Source: Candidatus Dormiibacterota bacterium (GTDB taxonomy: Bacteria > Chloroflexota > Dormibacteria > Aeolococcales > Aeolococcaceae). Taken from it: a stretch of DNA of 64,000 nucleotides. A program made the translations under genes and the position numbers. The stretch's first letter is position 1; each line of letters opens with the position of its first letter. The DNA is taken from NCBI GenBank assembly GCA_036276135.1, contig DATBEL010000066.1, positions 21,364-85,363 on the forward strand, written 5' to 3'. The notes under the pieces are model-generated. The model ran no database searches and was not told where the DNA came from. It saw only the letters and a list, made by a program, of their open reading frames with translations. Of this stretch, positions 6,308-55,180 are shown one piece after another.

Positions 6308-8947
<2,640 letters not shown>

Positions 8948-16226: not shown

Positions 16227-16301
16227 TCCGGGTTAGCTCAGCGGTAGAGCAGGCGGCTGTTAACCGCAAGGTCACTGGTTCGAATCCAGTACCCGGAGCC
16301 A
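16227..16301 (+). tRNA. tRNA-Asn (anticodon GTT)
   Basis: A cloverleaf folds by hand: 7-bp acceptor TCCGGGT/ACCCGGA, D arm GCTC/GAGC, anticodon loop CTGTTAA, T arm ACTGG-TTCGAAT-CCAGT, with an encoded CCA. It closely resembles E. coli tRNA-Asn. Confidence 0.8.
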
Positions 16302-18403: not shown

Positions 18404-19603
18404 TCAGGAGAAGGCGTCTTCCCCCGTGATCGCCTTGCCGAGGATGAGGGTGTGCACCTCCTCGGTGCCCTCGTAGGTGAGCACCGATTCGAGGTTGTTC
18501 ATGTGCCGGATCACCGGGTATTCGAGGGTGACCCCGTTGGCTCCGAGGATGGTGCGCGCCTCGCGCGCGATCTCGATCGCCGCGCGCACATTGGCGCGCT
18601 TGGCGAGTGACACCTGGACGGGGTGGAGCCGGCCGGAATCCTTCAGGGTGCCGAGGCGATGGGCCACCAGCCGGCCCTGCACCAGCGAGGTTGCCATGGC
18701 GGCGAGCTTGGCCTGGGTGAGCTGGAAGCGGGCGATCGGGCCGTCGAACATGCGGCGGGTCTTGCTGTACTCCAGCGCTGCCTCGAAGCAGGCACGGCCG
18801 GCGCCCAGCGCCCCCCAGGCGATGCCGTACCGCGCCTCGTTGAGGCACGACAGCGGGCCGCGCAACCCCGAAACCTCCGGCAGCACCGCAGTCTGTGGCA
18901 ATCGCACGTCGTCGAAACGCAGCTCGCTGGTCACCGATGCGCGCAGCGACAGCTTGCGATGGATGTCGGTCGCCGTGAATCCCGGGACACCGCGCTCCAC
19001 GAGAAAGCCGCGCACCCCCTCGTCGGTGGTGGCCCACACCACCGCCACGTCGGCCACGGAGCCGTTGGTGATCCACATCTTGTTGCCGTTCAGCACCCAG
19101 CCGTCGCCGCCGCGGCGTGCCACGGTGCGCATCGAGCCCGGGTCGCTGCCCGCGTCCGCCTCGGTCAGCCCGAAGCACCCGATCATCGATCCTGCTGCCA
19201 TCTCTGGCAGAAACTTGCGCTTCTGCTCCTCGCTCCCATACGCATGGATCGGGAACATCGCCAGCGAACCCTGCACCGAGACGAAGGAGCGCAGCCCGCT
19301 GTCACCCGCCTCGAGCTCCTCGCAGGCCACGCCGTAGGCGATGGCGGTGGAGCCGGCGCAGCCGTAGCCGGTCAGGTGCATGCCAAGAAGCCCGAGCGAA
19401 GCAACCTCGGCAACCAGCTCCCGGGGAAAGGTCGCCGCCTCGAAATGGTCGGCGATGATCGGCAGGACCCGTTCGCGCACCATCGCCCGCACGGTGTCGC
19501 GGATCAGCCGCTCGTCGTCGCTGAGCAGGCCGTCGACGTCGTAGAGGTCACTGGCCGCGGGCAGCGCCGGGCTCGTGCGCGCGGCCTGCGTGGTGGTCAC
19601 CAC
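18404..19603 (-). CDS. Acyl-CoA dehydrogenase, glutaryl-CoA dehydrogenase-like
   Basis: The protein has the acyl-CoA dehydrogenase fold, with GCDH-like motifs YGCAGSTAIAYGVACEELEAGDSG and the C-terminal TYEGTEEVHTLILGKAITG. Confidence 0.85.
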   Translation of the reverse strand: MVTTTQAARTSPALPAASDLYDVDGLLSDDERLIRDTVRAMVRERVLPIIADHFEAATFPRELVAEVASLGLLGMHLTGYGCAGSTAIAYGVACEELEAGDSGLRSFVSVQGSLAMFPIHAYGSEEQKRKFLPEMAAGSMIGCFGLTEADAGSDPGSMRTVARRGGDGWVLNGNKMWITNGSVADVAVVWATTDEGVRGFLVERGVPGFTATDIHRKLSLRASVTSELRFDDVRLPQTAVLPEVSGLRGPLSCLNEARYGIAWGALGAGRACFEAALEYSKTRRMFDGPIARFQLTQAKLAAMATSLVQGRLVAHRLGTLKDSGRLHPVQVSLAKRANVRAAIEIAREARTILGANGVTLEYPVIRHMNNLESVLTYEGTEEVHTLILGKAITGEDAFS

Positions 19604-19639
19604 AGAATTGAAGCACGCGGCCGGACCCGGCCGTGGCCT

Positions 19640-20062
19640 CTAGGCAACCGCCTCCCCCTCACCCGCGGTCCGAGCCGCCTCCACCTGGGTGCGCAGCAGC
19701 GTCTCGCCGACGAAGCCGGCATTGAGCGCGCTGACCCGCCCGCGGGCGTCGAGGACCACCGTTGTCGGCAGGGTCATCACCCGGTACGCCCGCGCCGCCT
19801 GCGGATCGACGCCCACGTCGATCTCGGTGACCTGCAGGTCGGTGATCGCCTCGTGGAGGCGTCGCAGCGCCGGCCGCTGCGCGACATGGCAGATGGTGCA
19901 GTTCTCCCCGGTGAAGTAGAGGATGTCCGCGGTGCCGCCGCAGCCGGCCGGGGCGACCCGGCCGAGCAGGCGCCGCTGCGAGGACCGCTGCAGCCTGAGG
20001 ACCCCGGCGACGATGGCGATGGCCGCCGCAGCGGCGATCGGGGCGAGCAGCACCGGCGCCAT
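19640..20062 (-). CDS. Membrane-anchored thioredoxin-fold protein (CxxC)
   Basis: An N-terminal TM helix is followed by a thioredoxin fold with CTIC active-site-like motif (FTGENCTICH) and the cis-Pro region TLPTTVVLD. Confidence 0.7.
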   Translation of the reverse strand: MAPVLLAPIAAAAAIAIVAGVLRLQRSSQRRLLGRVAPAGCGGTADILYFTGENCTICHVAQRPALRRLHEAITDLQVTEIDVGVDPQAARAYRVMTLPTTVVLDARGRVSALNAGFVGETLLRTQVEAARTAGEGEAVA

Positions 20063-20064
20063 GG

Positions 20065-20547
20065 TCAGCCGGTGACGGTGCGGCGGCGCGACAGGGGGAA
20101 GAGGCCCACCCGGACCATCTGGGCGTACACGATGCAGCCGACGCAGATGTCGAAGGCGAAGTTGAGGAAGGCGAGAGCGACCACGATCCAGCCCAGCGTC
20201 CAGGCGACGGTGAGGAGACCAGCCAGTGCCGTAACGCTCGCCGCCACCAGGAAGATCCCGCCGAGCAGCTGGGCAAAGCGGTGCGGGGCGGGGTCCTCGA
20301 CTCGGACGCGCGGACGCACCAGGCCCCTGGGCTTGAGCACTCCGACATAGATTGCCCGCGGCAGGCTCGTCGCCGGCGAGAGCGCGCCACCGAGCAGCAT
20401 CAACGCGAACACCGGCAGGGCGATGGCTGCCGCCGGCCGAGCCAGGGCAACCAGCCAGGCGATGATCAGCCCGACGATCAGGATCACCTGCCCGACCTTG
20501 AGGGCGCTGCGGTCGAAGCGCACGTTGGCCATCAGGAGCAAAAGCAT
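20065..20547 (-). CDS. Integral membrane protein, DUF4395-like (4 TM)
   Basis: Four hydrophobic helices are predicted. Its stop lies 2 nt from the downstream thioredoxin start, suggesting an operon. DUF4395 family proteins are characteristically found with thioredoxins. Confidence 0.6.
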   Translation of the reverse strand: MLLLLMANVRFDRSALKVGQVILIVGLIIAWLVALARPAAAIALPVFALMLLGGALSPATSLPRAIYVGVLKPRGLVRPRVRVEDPAPHRFAQLLGGIFLVAASVTALAGLLTVAWTLGWIVVALAFLNFAFDICVGCIVYAQMVRVGLFPLSRRRTVTG

Positions 20548-20631
20548 ACCGAAATGGTCGGATTTACCGTGCCGGGGCGAACGGGGTACCCTCGGCGCAC
20601 CGCGACCAGCAGATCACAGAGGGGATCGAGC

Positions 20632-21039
20632 GTGCCCGCCAAACGCGCCGACGTCGGCACCCTGCTCCGGGAGGCATTCGGCCGGGAGGCCGAGAGCGTG
20701 CTGCGCTGCCTCTTCTACGCGCGTCGTGCCGACGTCGAGGGCCGCGCCGACATCGCCGCGGTGTTGCGCTCGGTCGCGGAGGGGGAGATCAGCCAGGCAT
20801 TCGGGCACCTCGAGCTCCTCGAGGAGAGCGGCGACCCGCTTGCCGGCGGGGGCGACGCCGCGGGCGATCTCGCCGCGGTGGTCGAGGCGGAGGAGGCTGC
20901 GGTCGAGCGCTACGGCGAGCTGGCAGCAGCAGCCCGCGGCGCCGGCAGCGGCGACGCCGCCGACTGGTTCGAGTCGCTGGTCGCCGCCGAGAACGTGCAC
21001 CTCGGCGTGTTGCGCCGCGCCACCGCGGTGGGCCCGTGA
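20632..21039 (+). CDS. Rubrerythrin-like / ferritin-like diiron protein, about 135 aa
   Basis: An AGAGGGGA ribosome-binding site lies 6 nt before the GTG at 20632. Two E-x-x-H pairs typical of rubrerythrin diiron sites are present (EAESVLRCLFYARRADVEG ... SQAFGHLE and AVVEAEEAAVERYGELA ... AENVHLGVL). Confidence 0.65.
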   Translation: MPAKRADVGTLLREAFGREAESVLRCLFYARRADVEGRADIAAVLRSVAEGEISQAFGHLELLEESGDPLAGGGDAAGDLAAVVEAEEAAVERYGELAAAARGAGSGDAADWFESLVAAENVHLGVLRRATAVGP

Positions 21040-21605
21040 CGGCCGACCGGCTCGGGCCCGGCGAGGTGCGCACCGGCAGCGCCTATGAGGCCGAGCGCGC
21101 CGACAGCAGGGCTCGCCTCGCGCAGGCGGCGCCGGGCCACCGGGTCAGCCTCGGCGGCGAGCTCGTTCTCGTCTTCGAGAGCCGCGAGAGGGTCCGCGCG
21201 TCGCTCGAGGAGCTGCTTCGCGCTGAGCGCGTCAGCGACCAGCAGCACATCGACGCCGAGGCCGCCGCCTTCGCCGACGCGCTCCCCGGCGATCACGAGC
21301 TGGCGGCGACTCTGTACATGGACATCGCCGACCCCGCCGCCCTCGCGGACCGGCTCGCCGAGCTCGGGGAGTTGGGCGCGGCAGTGTTTGTCGACCTCGG
21401 CGGGGACCGCGTCAGGGGGCGCTCCGATGGCGCGGAGGGCGGCGGCGGAGGCTGGCACCTCCTGTTCGCGTTCGACCAGGAGCAGCGTCGGATGCTGCTC
21501 GACGGCGGCCCCGTCGCCGTGGTCGTCGATCACCCCCGGCTGCGGGCCACGGCCGTCCTCGACGTCGACCAGGTGCGGGCGGTCACCGCCGCCCTGCGCG
21601 CGTGA
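21036..21605 (+). CDS. DUF3501 family protein
   Basis: The GTG start overlaps the rubrerythrin stop in a GTGA arrangement. Length and sequence pattern fit DUF3501, a family recurrently encoded beside rubrerythrin genes. Confidence 0.6.
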   Translation: MTADRLGPGEVRTGSAYEAERADSRARLAQAAPGHRVSLGGELVLVFESRERVRASLEELLRAERVSDQQHIDAEAAAFADALPGDHELAATLYMDIADPAALADRLAELGELGAAVFVDLGGDRVRGRSDGAEGGGGGWHLLFAFDQEQRRMLLDGGPVAVVVDHPRLRATAVLDVDQVRAVTAALRA

Positions 21606-22006
21606 GACGCGCCCGCGGGTCACGGCGACGCCGCGGCGCCGGCGGTGCGCGCGGGCTCGTCGCTCCGGTGGCCGGCGCGGTGTTGGCGCTGCTGGCAGGG
21701 TGCGGTGACACCACCACCCAGCCGGCCTGGGTCGCAGCCCACCCCGACACGGCGCTGCTGAGCTTCTCGACCACTGCTCCCGGTGTTTGCGCCATCACCG
21801 TCCAATACCCGAACGACGCGCCGGCCGTGGTCAGCTATCTCGGCGGCGTCTATGTGCAGGTGCGCCGAGAGGGTCATCCGACCGCCCCGGGCGGGGCGGA
21901 GATCGACCATTCCGGCGATTGGCACATCTTCAAGCTGGGTGGCGGCGACCTGCTCGTGGTGACCCCGGGCGATGCCTTCGACTACCGGCTCGAGCAGAAT
22001 TGCTGA
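21602..22006 (+). CDS. Putative lipoprotein (signal peptide with lipobox LLAGC)
   Basis: The GTG start overlaps the previous stop (GTGA). The N-terminus is basic, followed by a hydrophobic segment and LAGC, then a beta-rich domain ending in two Cys residues. Confidence 0.5.
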   Translation: MRRARGSRRRRGAGGARGLVAPVAGAVLALLAGCGDTTTQPAWVAAHPDTALLSFSTTAPGVCAITVQYPNDAPAVVSYLGGVYVQVRREGHPTAPGGAEIDHSGDWHIFKLGGGDLLVVTPGDAFDYRLEQNC

Positions 22007-22016
22007 CCCTGCAAGA

Positions 22017-24203
22017 ATGGTGCCGATGAGGGCACGAGCCGGGGTGATGCCGTTCAGCGCCCTGGTGGGGCAGGACGCCATGAAGCGCGCGCTGCTGCTC
22101 AACGCGGTCAACCCGGCGATCGGCGGGGTGCTCATCCGCGGTCAGAAGGGCACCGCCAAGTCGACGGCCGTTCGAGGGCTCACCGAGCTGCTCCCCGACG
22201 TCGAGGTGGTGGCGGGCTGTCGATTCCAGTGTGACCCGGGGGCGCCGGGCATGCTGTGCGACGAGTGCCGCGCGCGCGCCGACGCGGGCGAGACCCTGCA
22301 CAGCGTGTCGCGCCGGATGACCCTGGTGGAGCTGCCCGTCAACGCCAGCGAGGACCGGGTGGTCGGCAGCATCGACGTCGAGGCCGCGATCAAGCGGGGC
22401 GAGCGCCGTTTCGAGCCCGGCCTGCTCGCCGCGGCCAACCGCAACCTGCTCTACGTCGACGAGGTCAACCTGCTCGACGACCACCTCGTCGACGTCCTGC
22501 TCGACGCGGCCGCGATGGGCGTCAACACCGTCGAGCGCGAGGGCGTGTCGCTGTCGCACCCGGCCCGGCTCATGCTGGTGGGCACCATGAACCCCGAGGA
22601 GGGCGAGCTGCGTCCGCAGCTGCTCGACCGCTTCGGCCTCTGCGTCGATGTCGGCGGCCTCCAGGGACTCGGGGAGAGGGTGCGGGTGATGGAGCGGGTC
22701 TCCCGCGAGGGCGCGCCGCGATCGGTCGACGAGAACGCCGCGCAGGGCCGGCTGCGCGCCACCGTCGCGCGGGCCACCGAGCTGCTGCCGCTGGTGCGCG
22801 TGCCTGCAGCGATGCGACGGTTCATCGCCCTGATCTGTGTGGACGCCGGCGCTGTCGGTCACCGCGCCGACATCGTCATCAGCAGGACCGCGCAGACGGT
22901 GTGCGCCTGGCGGGAGGCGGAGGCACTGGTCGCGGACGGCAGCAGCGACACCGCGGCCGTCGACGCTCTGTCGGTGACCGCCGAGGACGTCATCACAGCG
23001 GCGGAGCTGGCGCTGGCCCATCGCCGCCGCGACAACCCCTCCCAGGAGAGCAGCAGCGCCACCACGTCGCCCACCGAGGCGGCGGCCGAGCGCATGGAGG
23101 AGCTGCGCCGCGACGCGCAGGCAGCCGCCGACTCGGAGGCTGCGCAACAGGCCGATGAGTCGGAGGTGCCGCAGGAGTCGACCTCCGCTGCGGATGAGGG
23201 CACCGGATCGTCGCAAGGCGACGAAGCTCGCGCTGCGGAACCGGCGTCGTCGGCGCAGCCTCAACTGTTTGCCGGCGACCTCTTCCCGGTCCGCAAGATC
23301 AGCCTGCCGCGCGACCGGCGCACCCGCAAGGCAACCGGCAAGCGCAGCCAGGCTCGCAGCAAGGACCGTCGCGGACGCTACGTGCGCGCCGTGCAGACCG
23401 AGCACACCACCGACGTCGCGTTCGACGCCACGGTGCGTGCTGCCGCGCCCCATCAGCAGCGCCGACGCAGCGAGGCCACCGCGGCGGGCATCGTGGATGC
23501 GCCCGCGCTGCACCTCGAGCGCCAGGACCTCAGGCAGAAGGTGCGCCGGCGCCGCACCGGCACGTTGATCGTGTTCGTCGTCGACGCCAGCGCGTCGATG
23601 GACGCCGAGCAGCGCATGCAGGCCACCAAGGGCGCGGTCCTGTCGCTGCTGCGCGACGCCTACGTCCGCCGCGACAAGGTGTCGCTCGTCGTGTTCTCGG
23701 GACGCAGCGCGCGCGTCGTGCTGCAACCCACGTCGAGCGTCGACCTCGCCGAGGAGCGGCTGCAGCGGCTGGCGGTGGGCGGCACCACGCCACTGACCCA
23801 CGGGCTGGTGGCCGGGCTCAGGGTGGTGCGCACCGAGCGGCTGCGCGAGTCCTCTGTGTACCCACTGATCGTGCTCATCAGCGACGGCCGGGGCAACATC
23901 TCGCTGTTCGGCGAGGAACCGCTGCTCGAGGCGCAACGGCTGGCGGCGCAGATCGGCAACGAGCACGTGCGCATGCTCGTCATCGACTCAGCCCGCGATC
24001 ACATCGCCGCCACCCCACTGCCGCGTGTCGGCGTCGCTGCTCCCAGCAATTCGTCAGCACGGTCGCCCCTGTTCAGCGGGGGTTACGGATTCAACGCCTG
24101 TCTCGACCTGGCCGAGCGTTCCGGCGGCGAGTACCTCGGGCTGTACGACCTCAGCCAGGGCGCGATCCTGGCCGGCGTCGAGCGCAGCCTGCGGGGACGT
24201 TGA
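22017..24203 (+). CDS. chlD: Magnesium-chelatase subunit D-like protein: ChlI-type AAA+ N-domain, acidic/Pro-rich linker, C-terminal vWA/MIDAS domain
   Basis: The N-terminal region aligns with ChlI/BchI ([100 protein letters not shown]). An acidic linker follows. The C-terminal vWA carries MIDAS residues (FVVDASASM ... TPL ... SDGRGN). The start was chosen at ATG 22017, after the lipoprotein stop. Confidence 0.8.
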
Positions 24204-24250
24204 TCGAGGCACCAGGCCTCTCCGGCGGCTCAAGCGGCGACAATGCCCGC

Positions 24251-25294
24251 ATGCAGGCAGGTCGCGCCGTGTTCCCCTTCACCGCCATCGTCGGCCAGGA
24301 GCCGATGCGCCAGGCGCTGGTGCTCAACGCCATCAACCCGGCAATCGGCGGCGTGCTGATCCGCGGTGAGAAGGGAACGGCCAAGTCCACCGCCGTGCGC
24401 GCGCTCGCGCGACTCCTTCCCGAGCAGCTCGTGGTCGTCGGCTGCCAGTTCGGCTGCCCACCCAACGCTGGTGAGCAGCAGTGCGTCGACTGCAGCACCC
24501 GGGTCGCCGCCGGCGAGCAGCTTCCGCGTGAGGCGCGCCAGATGCGTGTCGTCGAGCTTCCCATCAATGCCAGCGAGGACCGCGTGGTGGGCAGCATCGA
24601 CATCGAGGCGGCGATCAAGACGGGCGAGAAGCGGTTCGAACCGGGCGTTCTCGCCGAGGCCAACCGCAACATCCTCTACGTCGACGAGGTCAACCTCCTC
24701 GACGATCACATCGTCGACGTCCTGCTCGACGCTGCCGCCATGGGCCTCAACACCGTCGAGCGCGAGGGCGTGTCGGTGTCACATCCGTCGCGCTTCATCC
24801 TTGTCGGCACCATGAACCCCGAGGAGGGCGACCTCCGCCCCCAGCTGCTCGACCGCTTCGGGCTCTGTGTCGACGTCGCCGGCATTCGCGACGTCATGCA
24901 GCGCGTCCAGATCGTCGAGCGTCGCGAAGAGTTCGAGGAGGACCCTGAGGCGTTCGCCATCCGTTACGAGGCACGCGAGACCGCCGAGGCGGACCGGATC
25001 GCCCACGCCATCCGCAGCCTCCCCGACGTCGAGGTCGACCGCGAGATCCTCATCGGCATCGCAGCTGTCGGCATCGAGCTCGAGGTGGATGGCCACCGCG
25101 CCGACATCGTCACCCGCAAGAGCGCGCAGGCGCTGGCCGCCTACGAGAACCGCGACCGGGTCAGCTTCGAGGACGTCGAGAGCGTCGCCCCGGCGGTGCT
25201 GGCGCATCGTGTCAAGCCCGCGGTGGCCGGCACCAAGCGCAACCTCGACCTCGGCGAGCTGATGCAGCGCGCCGTGACGCGCAACGAGAGCTGA
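24251..25294 (+). CDS. chlI: Magnesium-chelatase subunit I-like AAA+ ATPase
   Basis: Collinear with cyanobacterial ChlI and Rhodobacter BchI ([45 protein letters not shown] ... [69 protein letters not shown]). Confidence 0.8.
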
Positions 25295-25321
25295 CCGACC
25301 GTCCGGGGACCGGGGGTCGGC

Positions 25322-26587
25322 TCAGACCGCCTCGTCCTCGTCGTCGAGGATGGAGAGCGAGGGCCGGCGCGCGAACACCGTCTGGCGCATCAGCCGGCCG
25401 AGCAGGTTGGGCATCCGGTAGCTCTCCAGCGGCACCTGCACAGGTTTGCGCTCGATGTTGCGTCGCGAGATGTGGATGCCGTGCTTGGGCAGGATGCGGC
25501 GGAGATAGCCCCAGGTGTCGTAGAGCCCGTTGCTGACCGATTCATACCCGTGCTGCAGCACCATCAGGCGTGCGCTGTACGACATCAGCTCGTGGAAGAA
25601 CATCTTCTCGTCATCGGGCCGCGGCTCGATGAGGAGGATGTCGACGTCGGGATGGTGGTTGCGGACCAGCTTGATGTGGTCGAGCAAGCCGTCGTGGAGC
25701 ATGCCGCGGAAGACCTGGTTGTAGACCCCGCGCATGCCCAGGTCGGCGAGGTGGTCGCCGAGCAGCTCGCGCACCCCCGCCGGCGTGTGCAGGTTGCGCA
25801 TGTCGACCGGGACGATGGGATTGATGGCGACGATGAGGGTGGCGCCGCGATCGACGGCCACGTCGATCGCCGAGATCCCCTTGATGCCGCCGTCGACGTA
25901 ATCCACGTCGTCGATGCGCACCGGCCGGAAGAGGATGGGGATGGCGCTGCTGGCCGCCGCCGCCATCGAGATGGGCACGTGGGCGCGCTTGTTGAAGCGT
26001 GAGAACACGACGCGCTGGCCGGAATCGAGCGCGCACGCCACGATGTGCAGCTCGGGATCGAGGCGGCGGAAGTCGTTGCTGAACTCGTCGCGCGTCAGCA
26101 GCCTCTCGAGGAAGCGCACCAGCTCCGTGTTGCTGAAGAAGCCGGACGGCAGCAGCGGGGTGAGCATCCCGACGATGTCGACGGGGTTGAGCTTGCCGGG
26201 ATGCCGGGCCAGCTCCCAGGCGATCTCCTGGGCGAGCCGCGGCAGCTTGAGCATGCGCGCCGCCGCCTCGGCGAGGTTGGGGCGGTAGAGGCCCCACGGC
26301 GTTGGCGGCCGCAGCATCTCGTTGCTCCCCTCGAGCCCCAGCGCCATGTCCGTCGGGGTGATGCCGTTGGCGAGGAGGGCGCCGATCATCGAGCCGGCGC
26401 TGGTGCCGACGTAGATGTCGAAATCATTGACGCTGCTGCCCACGAGCAGGTCGTCGAGCGCTCGCAGCGCGCCGATCTCGTAGGTCAGCCCGGTGATGCC
26501 CCCGCCACAGAGCACCAGCGCCCGCTTGCCGCCGGTGGGATCGGGGGCGACGCGCCGAACGGTCGTCGCATTCCTGCGGCTGGGCAT
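25322..26587 (-). CDS. Patatin-like phospholipase family protein
   Basis: The oxyanion motif GGGITG, the nucleophile elbow GTSAGS and the catalytic DGG are all present. Confidence 0.8.
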
Positions 26588-54825: not shown

Positions 54826-54897
54826 GGCGGCGTGGAGCAGTGGCAGCTCGTCGGGCTCATAACCCGAAGGTCGCCGGTTCGAGTCCGGCCGCCGCAA
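54826..54897 (+). tRNA. tRNA-Met (anticodon CAT), initiator-like tRNA-fMet
   Basis: The sequence is near-identical to E. coli tRNA-fMet through the D, anticodon and T arms (TGGAGCAG...GCTCGTCGGGCTCATAACCCGAAGGTCG.CGGTTC). The three G-C pairs in the anticodon stem (GGG/CCC) are present. The 1:72 pair is mismatched (G-A by my count). CCA is not encoded. Confidence 0.7.
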
Positions 54898-55107: not shown

Positions 55108-55180
55108 GGCGGCATAGCTCAGTTGGTAGAGCGCCCGGCTCATACCCGGTATGTCCCTGGTTCGAATCCAGGTGCCGCCA
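55108..55180 (+). tRNA. tRNA with anticodon CAT: elongator tRNA-Met or lysidine-type tRNA-Ile2
   Basis: A cloverleaf folds: acceptor GGCGGCA/TGCCGCC, D arm GCTC-AGTTGGTA-GAGC, anticodon loop CTCATAC, T arm CCTGG-TTCGAAT-CCAGG. It lies 25 nt upstream of tilS. Confidence 0.7.

Follow-up and report, generated by a model that had tools for sequence, protein, structure and literature searches.

A Dormibacterota locus with thioredoxin, rubrerythrin and chelatase-motor genes as a probable juxtaposition of three modules

The window analysed here, a 64-kb stretch of a Candidatus Dormibacterota genome (~71% G+C) whose proteins are 92-99% identical to those of Candidatus Dormibacter and Dormibacterota metagenome-assembled genomes (MAGs), carries seven adjacent genes that an earlier note had interpreted as a redox and metal-handling cluster, with five of them forming a single metal-cofactor insertion or redox-repair machine. 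All seven open reading frames were confirmed at the coordinates given there, and their identification as DUF4395, thioredoxin-like (Trx), rubrerythrin (Rbr), DUF3501, lipoprotein, ChlD and ChlI genes was borne out by Pfam and NCBIfam profiles (weakly so for Trx), or by the lipobox in the case of the lipoprotein. The locus is probably a lineage-specific juxtaposition of three self-contained modules, namely DUF4395-Trx, Rbr-DUF3501 and ChlD-ChlI (ChlID), inside a syntenic housekeeping stretch, because the patterns found in a survey of related genomes show each module to be separable from the others or lost independently.

Gene neighbourhoods within and beyond Dormibacterota

The gene-neighbourhood survey, which covered 21 distinct Dormibacterota-type lineages, placed Rbr-DUF3501 beside ChlD/ChlI in the window's own clade and found them separated or absent in other lineages (Table 1). 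The order RadC-ACAD-Trx-DUF4395/Rbr-DUF3501-lipoprotein-ChlD-ChlI-patatin-LepA recurs in loci L001-L004 and L008-L010 (with the DUF4395/trx part deleted in L009), and the uninterrupted run of the five genes from Rbr to ChlI is limited to one Dormibacterota clade. In five lineages, DUF3501 and ChlD are separated by genes of which all or most run on the opposite strand; they encode mostly glycosyltransferases or sugar epimerases, and the insertion in L092 comprises five genes over 5.2 kb. DUF3501 occurs without Rbr in four lineages (L016, L022, L093 and L094), and ChlD-ChlI stands without DUF3501 in six. These patterns do not support the proposal that Rbr-DUF3501 is coupled to ChlD/ChlI as one machine. 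Moreover, the whole stretch DnaG-RpoD-DUF4234-RadC-ACAD-...-patatin-LepA-HemW-HrcA is syntenic across Dormibacterota; since the entire region from RadC to LepA is thus kept in order, co-location is weak evidence of a functional link, adjacency being expected from inheritance alone.

Table 1. Arrangement of the locus among the Dormibacterota-type lineages surveyed.
Arrangement	Lineages
Full arrangement	window, L001, L004, L008, L010
As in the first row, with DUF4395 and the 5' portion of trx deleted	L009
DUF3501 (or the lipoprotein) separated from ChlD by one to five genes	L006, L011, L022, L092, L094
No Rbr; DUF4395-Trx and DUF3501 retained	L022, L094
RadC-DUF3501-lipoprotein-ChlD, without Rbr, DUF4395, Trx and ACAD	L016, L093
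ChlD-ChlI retained, no DUF3501 or Rbr nearby	L012, L014, L015, L017, L018, L020

The one-machine proposal fares no better beyond the phylum. A scan of species-representative genomes with ChlD yielded 80 loci, 67 of them not of Dormibacterota type; DUF3501 or Rbr accompanied none of these 67, and CobN lay within 10 kb in 37, often abutting ChlD (PF02514 was confirmed on five). Conversely, a proteobacterial DUF3501 locus (L007) carries the canonical order Rbr-RFO-DUF3501, where RFO is a CCG-domain Fe-S oxidoreductase (COG0247), and no ChlID.

If the modular reading is true, the locus itself adds little, holding Dormibacterota versions of a published Rbr-DUF3501 pair and of the ChlID motor; it would also be a clean example of how regional synteny in a poorly sampled phylum can mimic an operon-level functional link.

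Other genes flank ChlD in individual lineages. An Mdh gene lies directly upstream of it in L015, L017 and L018, with TrmI further up in the latter two, and L012 (1117-8088) carries two IucA/IucC-FhuF siderophore-synthetase genes upstream of ChlD, where other lineages carry Rbr-DUF3501. In L093 (11198-20144; JGI 3300017988 Ga0181520_10000002), an SDR gene and the F420 genes CofD, CofE (F420_ligase) and CofC stand between ChlD and ChlI, and just downstream are two proteins with PF08369 (PCP_red, the protochlorophyllide-reductase C-terminal domain), one of which also contains Usp and RUBY_RBDX.

Identity and partner of the ChlD-ChlI pair

ChlD has the architecture of a chelatase medium subunit, with an intact N-terminal AAA+ domain (AAA_5, Mg_chelatase and AAA_lid_2 matches) bearing a Cys4 insert, an acidic/Pro-rich linker containing AAPxQ, and a C-terminal VWA domain (VWA and VWA_2 matches) with a DASAS MIDAS motif; the AAPxQ element of PF26791 was also recorded for ChlD orthologs. 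ChlD and ChlI both keep an intact Walker B, the Cys4 insert and a Walker A reading GxKGTAKST, and their Walker A, Walker B, Cys4 and MIDAS motifs agree with those of CobN-linked homologs. The Ala of the Walker A (GTAKST) was considered as a sign of an inactive or divergent ATPase and rejected, as it is the family norm, CobN-linked homologs included. The insert in the AAA+ domain, C-x4-C-x(8-9)-C-x2-C, spans residues 68-84 of ChlD and 82-98 of ChlI and is zinc-binding-like. Cyanobacterial ChlI has non-Cys residues at the corresponding positions.

Among NCBIfam families, ChlD scores best with TIGR02442, 'putative cobaltochelatase' (706.5 bits; curated cut-off 779.45), ahead of TIGR02031, BchD-ChlD (404.6 bits; cut-off 499.55), and ChlI reaches 407.8 bits with TIGR02030, BchI-ChlI (cut-off 466.95). 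Against solved structures, ChlI scores 355 bits (E 4e-105) to ChlI 8osf and 306 bits to BchI 1g8p. The earlier note had likened the pair to MoxR-VWA chaperone systems, which resemble it in joining an AAA+ ATPase to a VWA/MIDAS protein; the window ATPase differs in belonging to ChlI/BchI and not to MoxR/AAA_3, and a MoxR identity was rejected on its marginal scores (AAA_3 18.7 bits, E 1.7e-3; bpMoxR 18.0 bits, E 1.6e-3; cut-off 27) against 408 bits for ChlI/BchI. A genuine MoxR (AAA_3) ATPase does occur in L015 (4358-6515), where it lies with a DUF58 protein directly downstream of ChlI as a second system of AAA+/VWA type.

Across the Dormibacterota loci and matches compared, ChlD is ~51-97% identical. 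Both proteins are much better conserved than those encoded beside them: compared with the window, L006 shows 78% identity in ChlI and 66% in ChlD, but 43% in DUF3501 and 39% in the lipoprotein. The window ChlI is 53-62% identical to ChlI, or to the AAA+ region of ChlD, from non-Dormibacterota loci, the 62% being reached by the separate ChlI of Sporomusa (L053), whose CobN-ChlD-ChlI genes share the D-then-I order of the window.

ChlI would accordingly be placed as the AAA+ motor, and ChlD as the AAA+/VWA adaptor, of a class I ATP-dependent tetrapyrrole chelatase; the large subunit that the pair serves would most likely be a CobN-type protein whose gene lies elsewhere, making ChlD and ChlI part of the cobaltochelatase of aerobic B12 synthesis. 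Actinobacteria, for example Mycobacterium, use ChlID with a distal CobN ('stage 7'; Kuznetsov et al., 2022, PMC9227772), and the window pair resembles theirs in its best-scoring ChlD family, in the intact AAA+, Cys4, acidic/Pro-linker and VWA-MIDAS elements of ChlD with a separate ChlI, and in the D-then-I order also seen in Sporomusa.

Several findings weigh against the modular reading. ChlD and ChlI both score under the curated NCBIfam cut-offs, which sets them apart from the CobN-ChlID cobaltochelatases. No CobN or ChlH was detected in the 64-kb window (Pfam on large open reading frames; tblastn with three CobNs) or in the ±6-10 kb flanking the Dormibacterota-type loci examined, and cob genes and B12 riboswitches are likewise missing near these loci; the riboswitch search found none in ~210 kb of Dormibacterota DNA (the window plus 10 loci), a sample size at which the result is uninformative. 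In an unbootstrapped neighbour-joining tree, the Dormibacterota ChlD clade lies beside one actinobacterial MAG and Chloroflexota ChlDs with no CobN nearby, and genomes including Anaerolineae have been reported to hold chlD/chlI while lacking a large subunit as well as a B12 or chlorophyll pathway, the function there being "unclear" (Kuznetsov et al., 2022, PMC9227772). Finally, in 14 of the 20 evaluable lineages DUF3501 is located upstream of ChlD at a distance of ≤6 kb, and together with the lipoprotein it stays directly upstream in L016 and L093 despite the loss of Rbr, DUF4395, Trx and ACAD; this persistence beside ChlD could reflect a real DUF3501-ChlD link.

Further searches for a partner returned little. 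PF02514 is not annotated in L092-L094, the Rubrobacteraceae CobN of L078, used as a query, retrieved only Rubrobacteraceae-type sequences among its best 120 homologs, a result uninformative on Dormibacterota, and a search for literature tying Dormibacter* to cobalamin, B12 or chelatase found nothing usable.

A less likely reading, in line with the lack of a nearby CobN, is that Dormibacterota have no CobN/ChlH-type large subunit and that ChlID is an orphan, a stand-alone AAA+/VWA motor with a non-tetrapyrrole or unrecognised client and unrelated to Rbr-DUF3501. Such a motor would match the published 'stage 1-2' genomes (Kuznetsov, Milenkin and Antonov, 2022, PMC9227772) in having adjacent chlD/chlI with no chlH/cobN nearby, and the nearest ChlD clade in the tree is that of the Chloroflexota, to which the Anaerolineae reported without a large subunit belong. 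The ChlDs of this neighbouring Chloroflexota/actinobacterial clade have unrelated genes around them (LacI, SBP, PA14, GNAT, histidine kinases) and no shared partner, and ChlD/ChlI of Dormibacterota are themselves highly conserved across the phylum with no conserved neighbour. The published examples differ in being anaerobes. Dormibacterota have been described as aerobes. A distal cobN is, moreover, normal where ChlID serves cobaltochelatase, as in Mycobacterium; the best family match of ChlD is to a putative cobaltochelatase; and absence from flanks of ±10 kb is uninformative for the rest of a 3-5 Mb genome. The choice for the pair would thus lie between an ordinary cobaltochelatase motor whose CobN is distal and an orphan ChlID of the published type. 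Dormibacterota may therefore join the organisms that keep ChlD/ChlI without a nearby, perhaps without any, large chelatase subunit, in which the function of ChlID is an open question of the chelatase field.

The persistence of DUF3501 bears on the one-machine proposal, in which Rbr, DUF3501, the lipoprotein, ChlD and ChlI, possibly with DUF4395-Trx, would insert a metal cofactor or carry out redox repair, with the ChlID motor acting on Rbr, whose dimetal site it would load or remodel, or on some other client that DUF3501 presents. Its main support is that DUF3501 and the lipoprotein persist directly upstream of ChlD in L016 and L093, which have lost other neighbours. The unbroken DUF3501-lipoprotein-ChlD order, found in 8 of the 21 lineages with these two counted, the proximity of DUF3501 to ChlD in the 14 lineages counted above, the close spacing of the window genes (GTGA overlaps at two junctions and only 10 nt ahead of ChlD) and the His-to-Gln change of a metal ligand in Rbr of the window's clade point the same way. 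We nevertheless regard it as quite unlikely, given the opposite-strand insertions, the lineages in which ChlD-ChlI lacks DUF3501 or DUF3501 lacks Rbr, the synteny of the region and the 67 non-Dormibacterota ChlD loci without either protein. In addition, the lipoprotein lies outside the cytoplasm, but Rbr, DUF3501 and ChlID all lack a signal peptide, and the only partners listed in the published survey of RBR neighbourhoods are DUF3501 and RFO, with no chelatase mentioned (Cardenas et al., 2016, PMC5114695). A related scenario, in which Dormibacterota lack CobN/ChlH and ChlD-ChlI acts on a non-tetrapyrrole client that DUF3501 brings to it, together with the lipoprotein, the ligand-altered Rbr or both, appears very improbable; if true, it would be the first case of a link between a class I chelatase AAA+/VWA motor and a protein system of the di-metal carboxylate kind.

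The rubrerythrin-DUF3501 and DUF4395-thioredoxin pairs

Rbr consists of a single four-helix ferritin-like domain with no rubredoxin domain, and over residues 11-125 its best phmmer matches among solved structures are the rubredoxin-less Rbr 4di0/9onm (E 1e-20) and sulerythrin 1j30 (2e-16). The dimetal site of BpRbr is formed by E20, E53, H56, E90, E124 and H127 (bioRxiv 10.1101/2025.06.01.657255). The window protein keeps five of these six ligands rather than the full set: E20, E53, E124 and H127 are conserved, E90 is conserved by phmmer and lies one residue off in the MAFFT alignment, and the equivalent of H56 is Gln, the first ExxH motif reading E-[IT]-S-Q in the window, L001, L004, L008, L009 and L010. 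At this position, a ligand of metal site 1, His is retained in the deeper locus L006, the L007 protein and 4di0; the swap could alter metal preference or activity.

DUF3501 was identified by a hidden Markov model score above the gathering threshold and by the fold of PDB 3fjv, and its gene is co-localised with that of Rbr through a GTGA overlap. The view of the earlier note that the two form a recurring pair agrees with the literature, where the pair together with RFO, an HdrD/GlpC-like CCG-domain protein, constitutes the 'aerobic-type rubrerythrin' cluster, with 25 genomes classed as 'RBR-DUF3501 only' against 185 holding all three genes (Cardenas et al., 2016, PMC5114695). The window conforms to this cluster in that a rubredoxin-less Rbr, closest to BpRbr 4di0/9onm and sulerythrin, lies directly upstream of, and is translationally coupled to, a PF12007 protein. 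It departs from it in the Gln at the H56 position, seen in the window's clade, and in the four Dormibacterota lineages with DUF3501 and no adjacent Rbr. RFO is missing too, as in the minority class of 'RBR-DUF3501 only' genomes: with the L007 protein as query, tblastn gave no match to the window at E≤1 and none to the Dormibacterota loci at E≤1e-3. Rbr and DUF3501, with the clade-specific lipoprotein, would thus correspond to the published oxidative-stress pair minus its usual RFO partner.

The lipoprotein matches no Pfam or NCBIfam family and, among the sequences compared, is confined to Dormibacterota, where it follows DUF3501 in L001, L004, L006, L008-L010, L016 and L093. Alignments show a lipobox LLAGC and invariant HPD, GxCA and C-terminal Cys residues, consistent with a possible disulfide or metal site; a single-sequence AlphaFold2 model (pLDDT 43) was unusable.

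In the divergent module, DUF4395 scores 87.9 bits with PF14340 against a threshold of 24.5. Its C135-V-G-C138 motif at the end of the fourth transmembrane (TM) helix is invariant in the six Dormibacterota sequences aligned, as is its EDPAPHRFAQ loop among the aligned Dormibacterota sequences, and CxGC in the last TM helix recurs in 91-92 of 110 DUF4395 family representatives (~83%; P0283-P0432). The thioredoxin-like protein has a TM helix spanning residues ~3-22, with five Arg after it, and an active site C55-T-I-C58. It matches thioredoxin profiles weakly (Pfam E 1.8e-3, 18.7 bits, cut-off 23.5; NCBIfam E 1.5e-5, well short of the cut-off), and the orthologs in L006 and L092 match PF00085 without being marked weak or faint; CT[IV]C and MTLPTT are invariant in the ortholog alignment.

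Three of the 110 family representatives (P0371, P0385 and P0416) are DUF4395-Trx fusion proteins in the order of the window gene pair, and L091, from an unrelated genome, carries the DUF4395-to-Trx gene pair amid unrelated genes, which sustains the treatment of the two as one unit in the earlier note. Because such fusions exist and the L091 pair has unrelated neighbours, DUF4395-Trx is a putative autonomous membrane thiol-redox unit. One further representative (P0298) is a ThiS-DUF4395 fusion. The Arg cluster after the anchor helix and the fusion of Trx directly after TM4 suggest that the Trx domain faces the cytoplasm, and the CxGC motif with the Trx and ThiS fusions suggests a membrane thiol or sulfur-transfer role for DUF4395. 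The CxGC at the cytoplasmic end of TM4 and the CxxC of the tethered Trx may exchange a disulfide, possibly a persulfide. A comparable layout is known from the CcdA/DsbD-Trx and VKOR-Trx relays, where a multi-pass membrane protein that carries a conserved CxxC within a TM helix adjoins or is fused to a CxxC thioredoxin; the differences are that DUF4395 has a single Cys pair, that the window Trx is predicted to be cytoplasmic rather than periplasmic, and that the ThiS fusion hints at sulfur-carrier chemistry instead. The conserved and sometimes fused DUF4395-tethered Trx pair, with its family-wide CxGC, offers a testable function for DUF4395.

In L009, DUF4395 and the 5' two-thirds of the trx gene are gone, leaving 367 nt between ACAD and Rbr (8241-8608), a loss explicable by deletion or by an artefact of MAG assembly. 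L009 is the closest species-level relative of the window, its ChlD being 92% identical.

A partial link between the two redox pairs, with DUF4395-Trx supplying reducing equivalents to Rbr-DUF3501 in place of RFO and ChlD-ChlI unrelated, would be compatible with the modular reading; we consider it unlikely. The divergent arrangement is kept wherever both modules are present (window, L001, L004, L006, L008, L010 and L092), RFO homologs are absent from the window and the Dormibacterota loci, and the Trx domain is predicted to lie in the cytoplasm, where Rbr is located. On the other side, L009 keeps Rbr-DUF3501 without DUF4395 and the 5' part of trx, L022 and L094 keep DUF4395-Trx and DUF3501 with no Rbr, L091 and the loci of the fusion proteins carry DUF4395-Trx without Rbr or DUF3501, and RFO could be encoded elsewhere in the genome.

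Gene junctions and regional context

The five plus-strand genes had been described as chained by 4-nt overlaps, which is accurate for part of the run (Table 2). The Rbr/DUF3501 junction (21036-21039) and the DUF3501/lipoprotein junction are unambiguous GTGA overlaps. ChlD, by contrast, is out of frame for a 4-nt overlap with the lipoprotein gene, and the start supported by homology is ATG 22017, 10 nt past the lipoprotein stop. The overlap of ChlI with ChlD (TTGA at 24200) exists solely with a TTG start: ChlI has 364 aa from TTG 24200 or 347 aa from ATG 24251, the latter being the more likely start because most orthologs have 347-349 aa. In the window's clade the five genes are packed tightly enough for co-transcription; the arrangement is not conserved and gives no sign of a shared mechanism.

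On the minus strand, the thioredoxin gene begins 2 nt past the DUF4395 stop, as previously noted. The divergent spacer is present where it had been placed, with an annotated length of 84 nt instead of the 85 nt reported; DUF4395 orthologs start at the residue equal to Met6 (ATG 20532), which is the probable start and would lengthen the spacer to ~99 nt. The spacer has no Rfam match, and a scan of 19400-25500 detected no sigma-70-like promoter or intrinsic terminator, although the sigma-70 consensus may not fit this phylum.

Table 2. Features of the locus, with window coordinates and the evidence for each assignment.
Feature	Coordinates	Strand	Evidence or remark
Membrane-anchored thioredoxin-like protein, 140 aa (module 1)	19640..20062	-	weak Trx matches, CxxC motif, orthologs
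DUF4395 four-TM protein, 160 aa as open reading frame (module 1)	20065..20547	-	PF14340, E 9e-25
Intergenic spacer separating the divergent DUF4395-trx and rbr-led gene sets	20548..20631	.	84 nt as annotated
Rubredoxin-less ('aerobic-type', sulerythrin-like) rubrerythrin, 135 aa (module 2)	20632..21039	+	PF02915, E 5e-8
DUF3501 protein, 189 aa (module 2)	21036..21605	+	PF12007, E 2e-27
Dormibacterota-specific lipoprotein, 134 aa	21602..22006	+	lipobox LLAG-C34
ChlD-type medium subunit, class I (ATP-dependent) chelatase, 728 aa (module 3)	22017..24203	+	AAA+, VWA
ChlI/BchI-type AAA+ small subunit (module 3)	24200..25294	+	TIGR02030, PDB ChlI similarity

The only Rfam matches in the window are tRNA genes at 16227-16298, 54826-54897 and 55108-55180. 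Its remaining genes are of housekeeping type and include those for PPDK, DnaG, RpoD, LepA, HrcA, a MiaB-like protein and RNase Y, as well as an AddA-like helicase-nuclease, Mfd, IleRS, FtsH and a NadB/Sdh-like flavoprotein.

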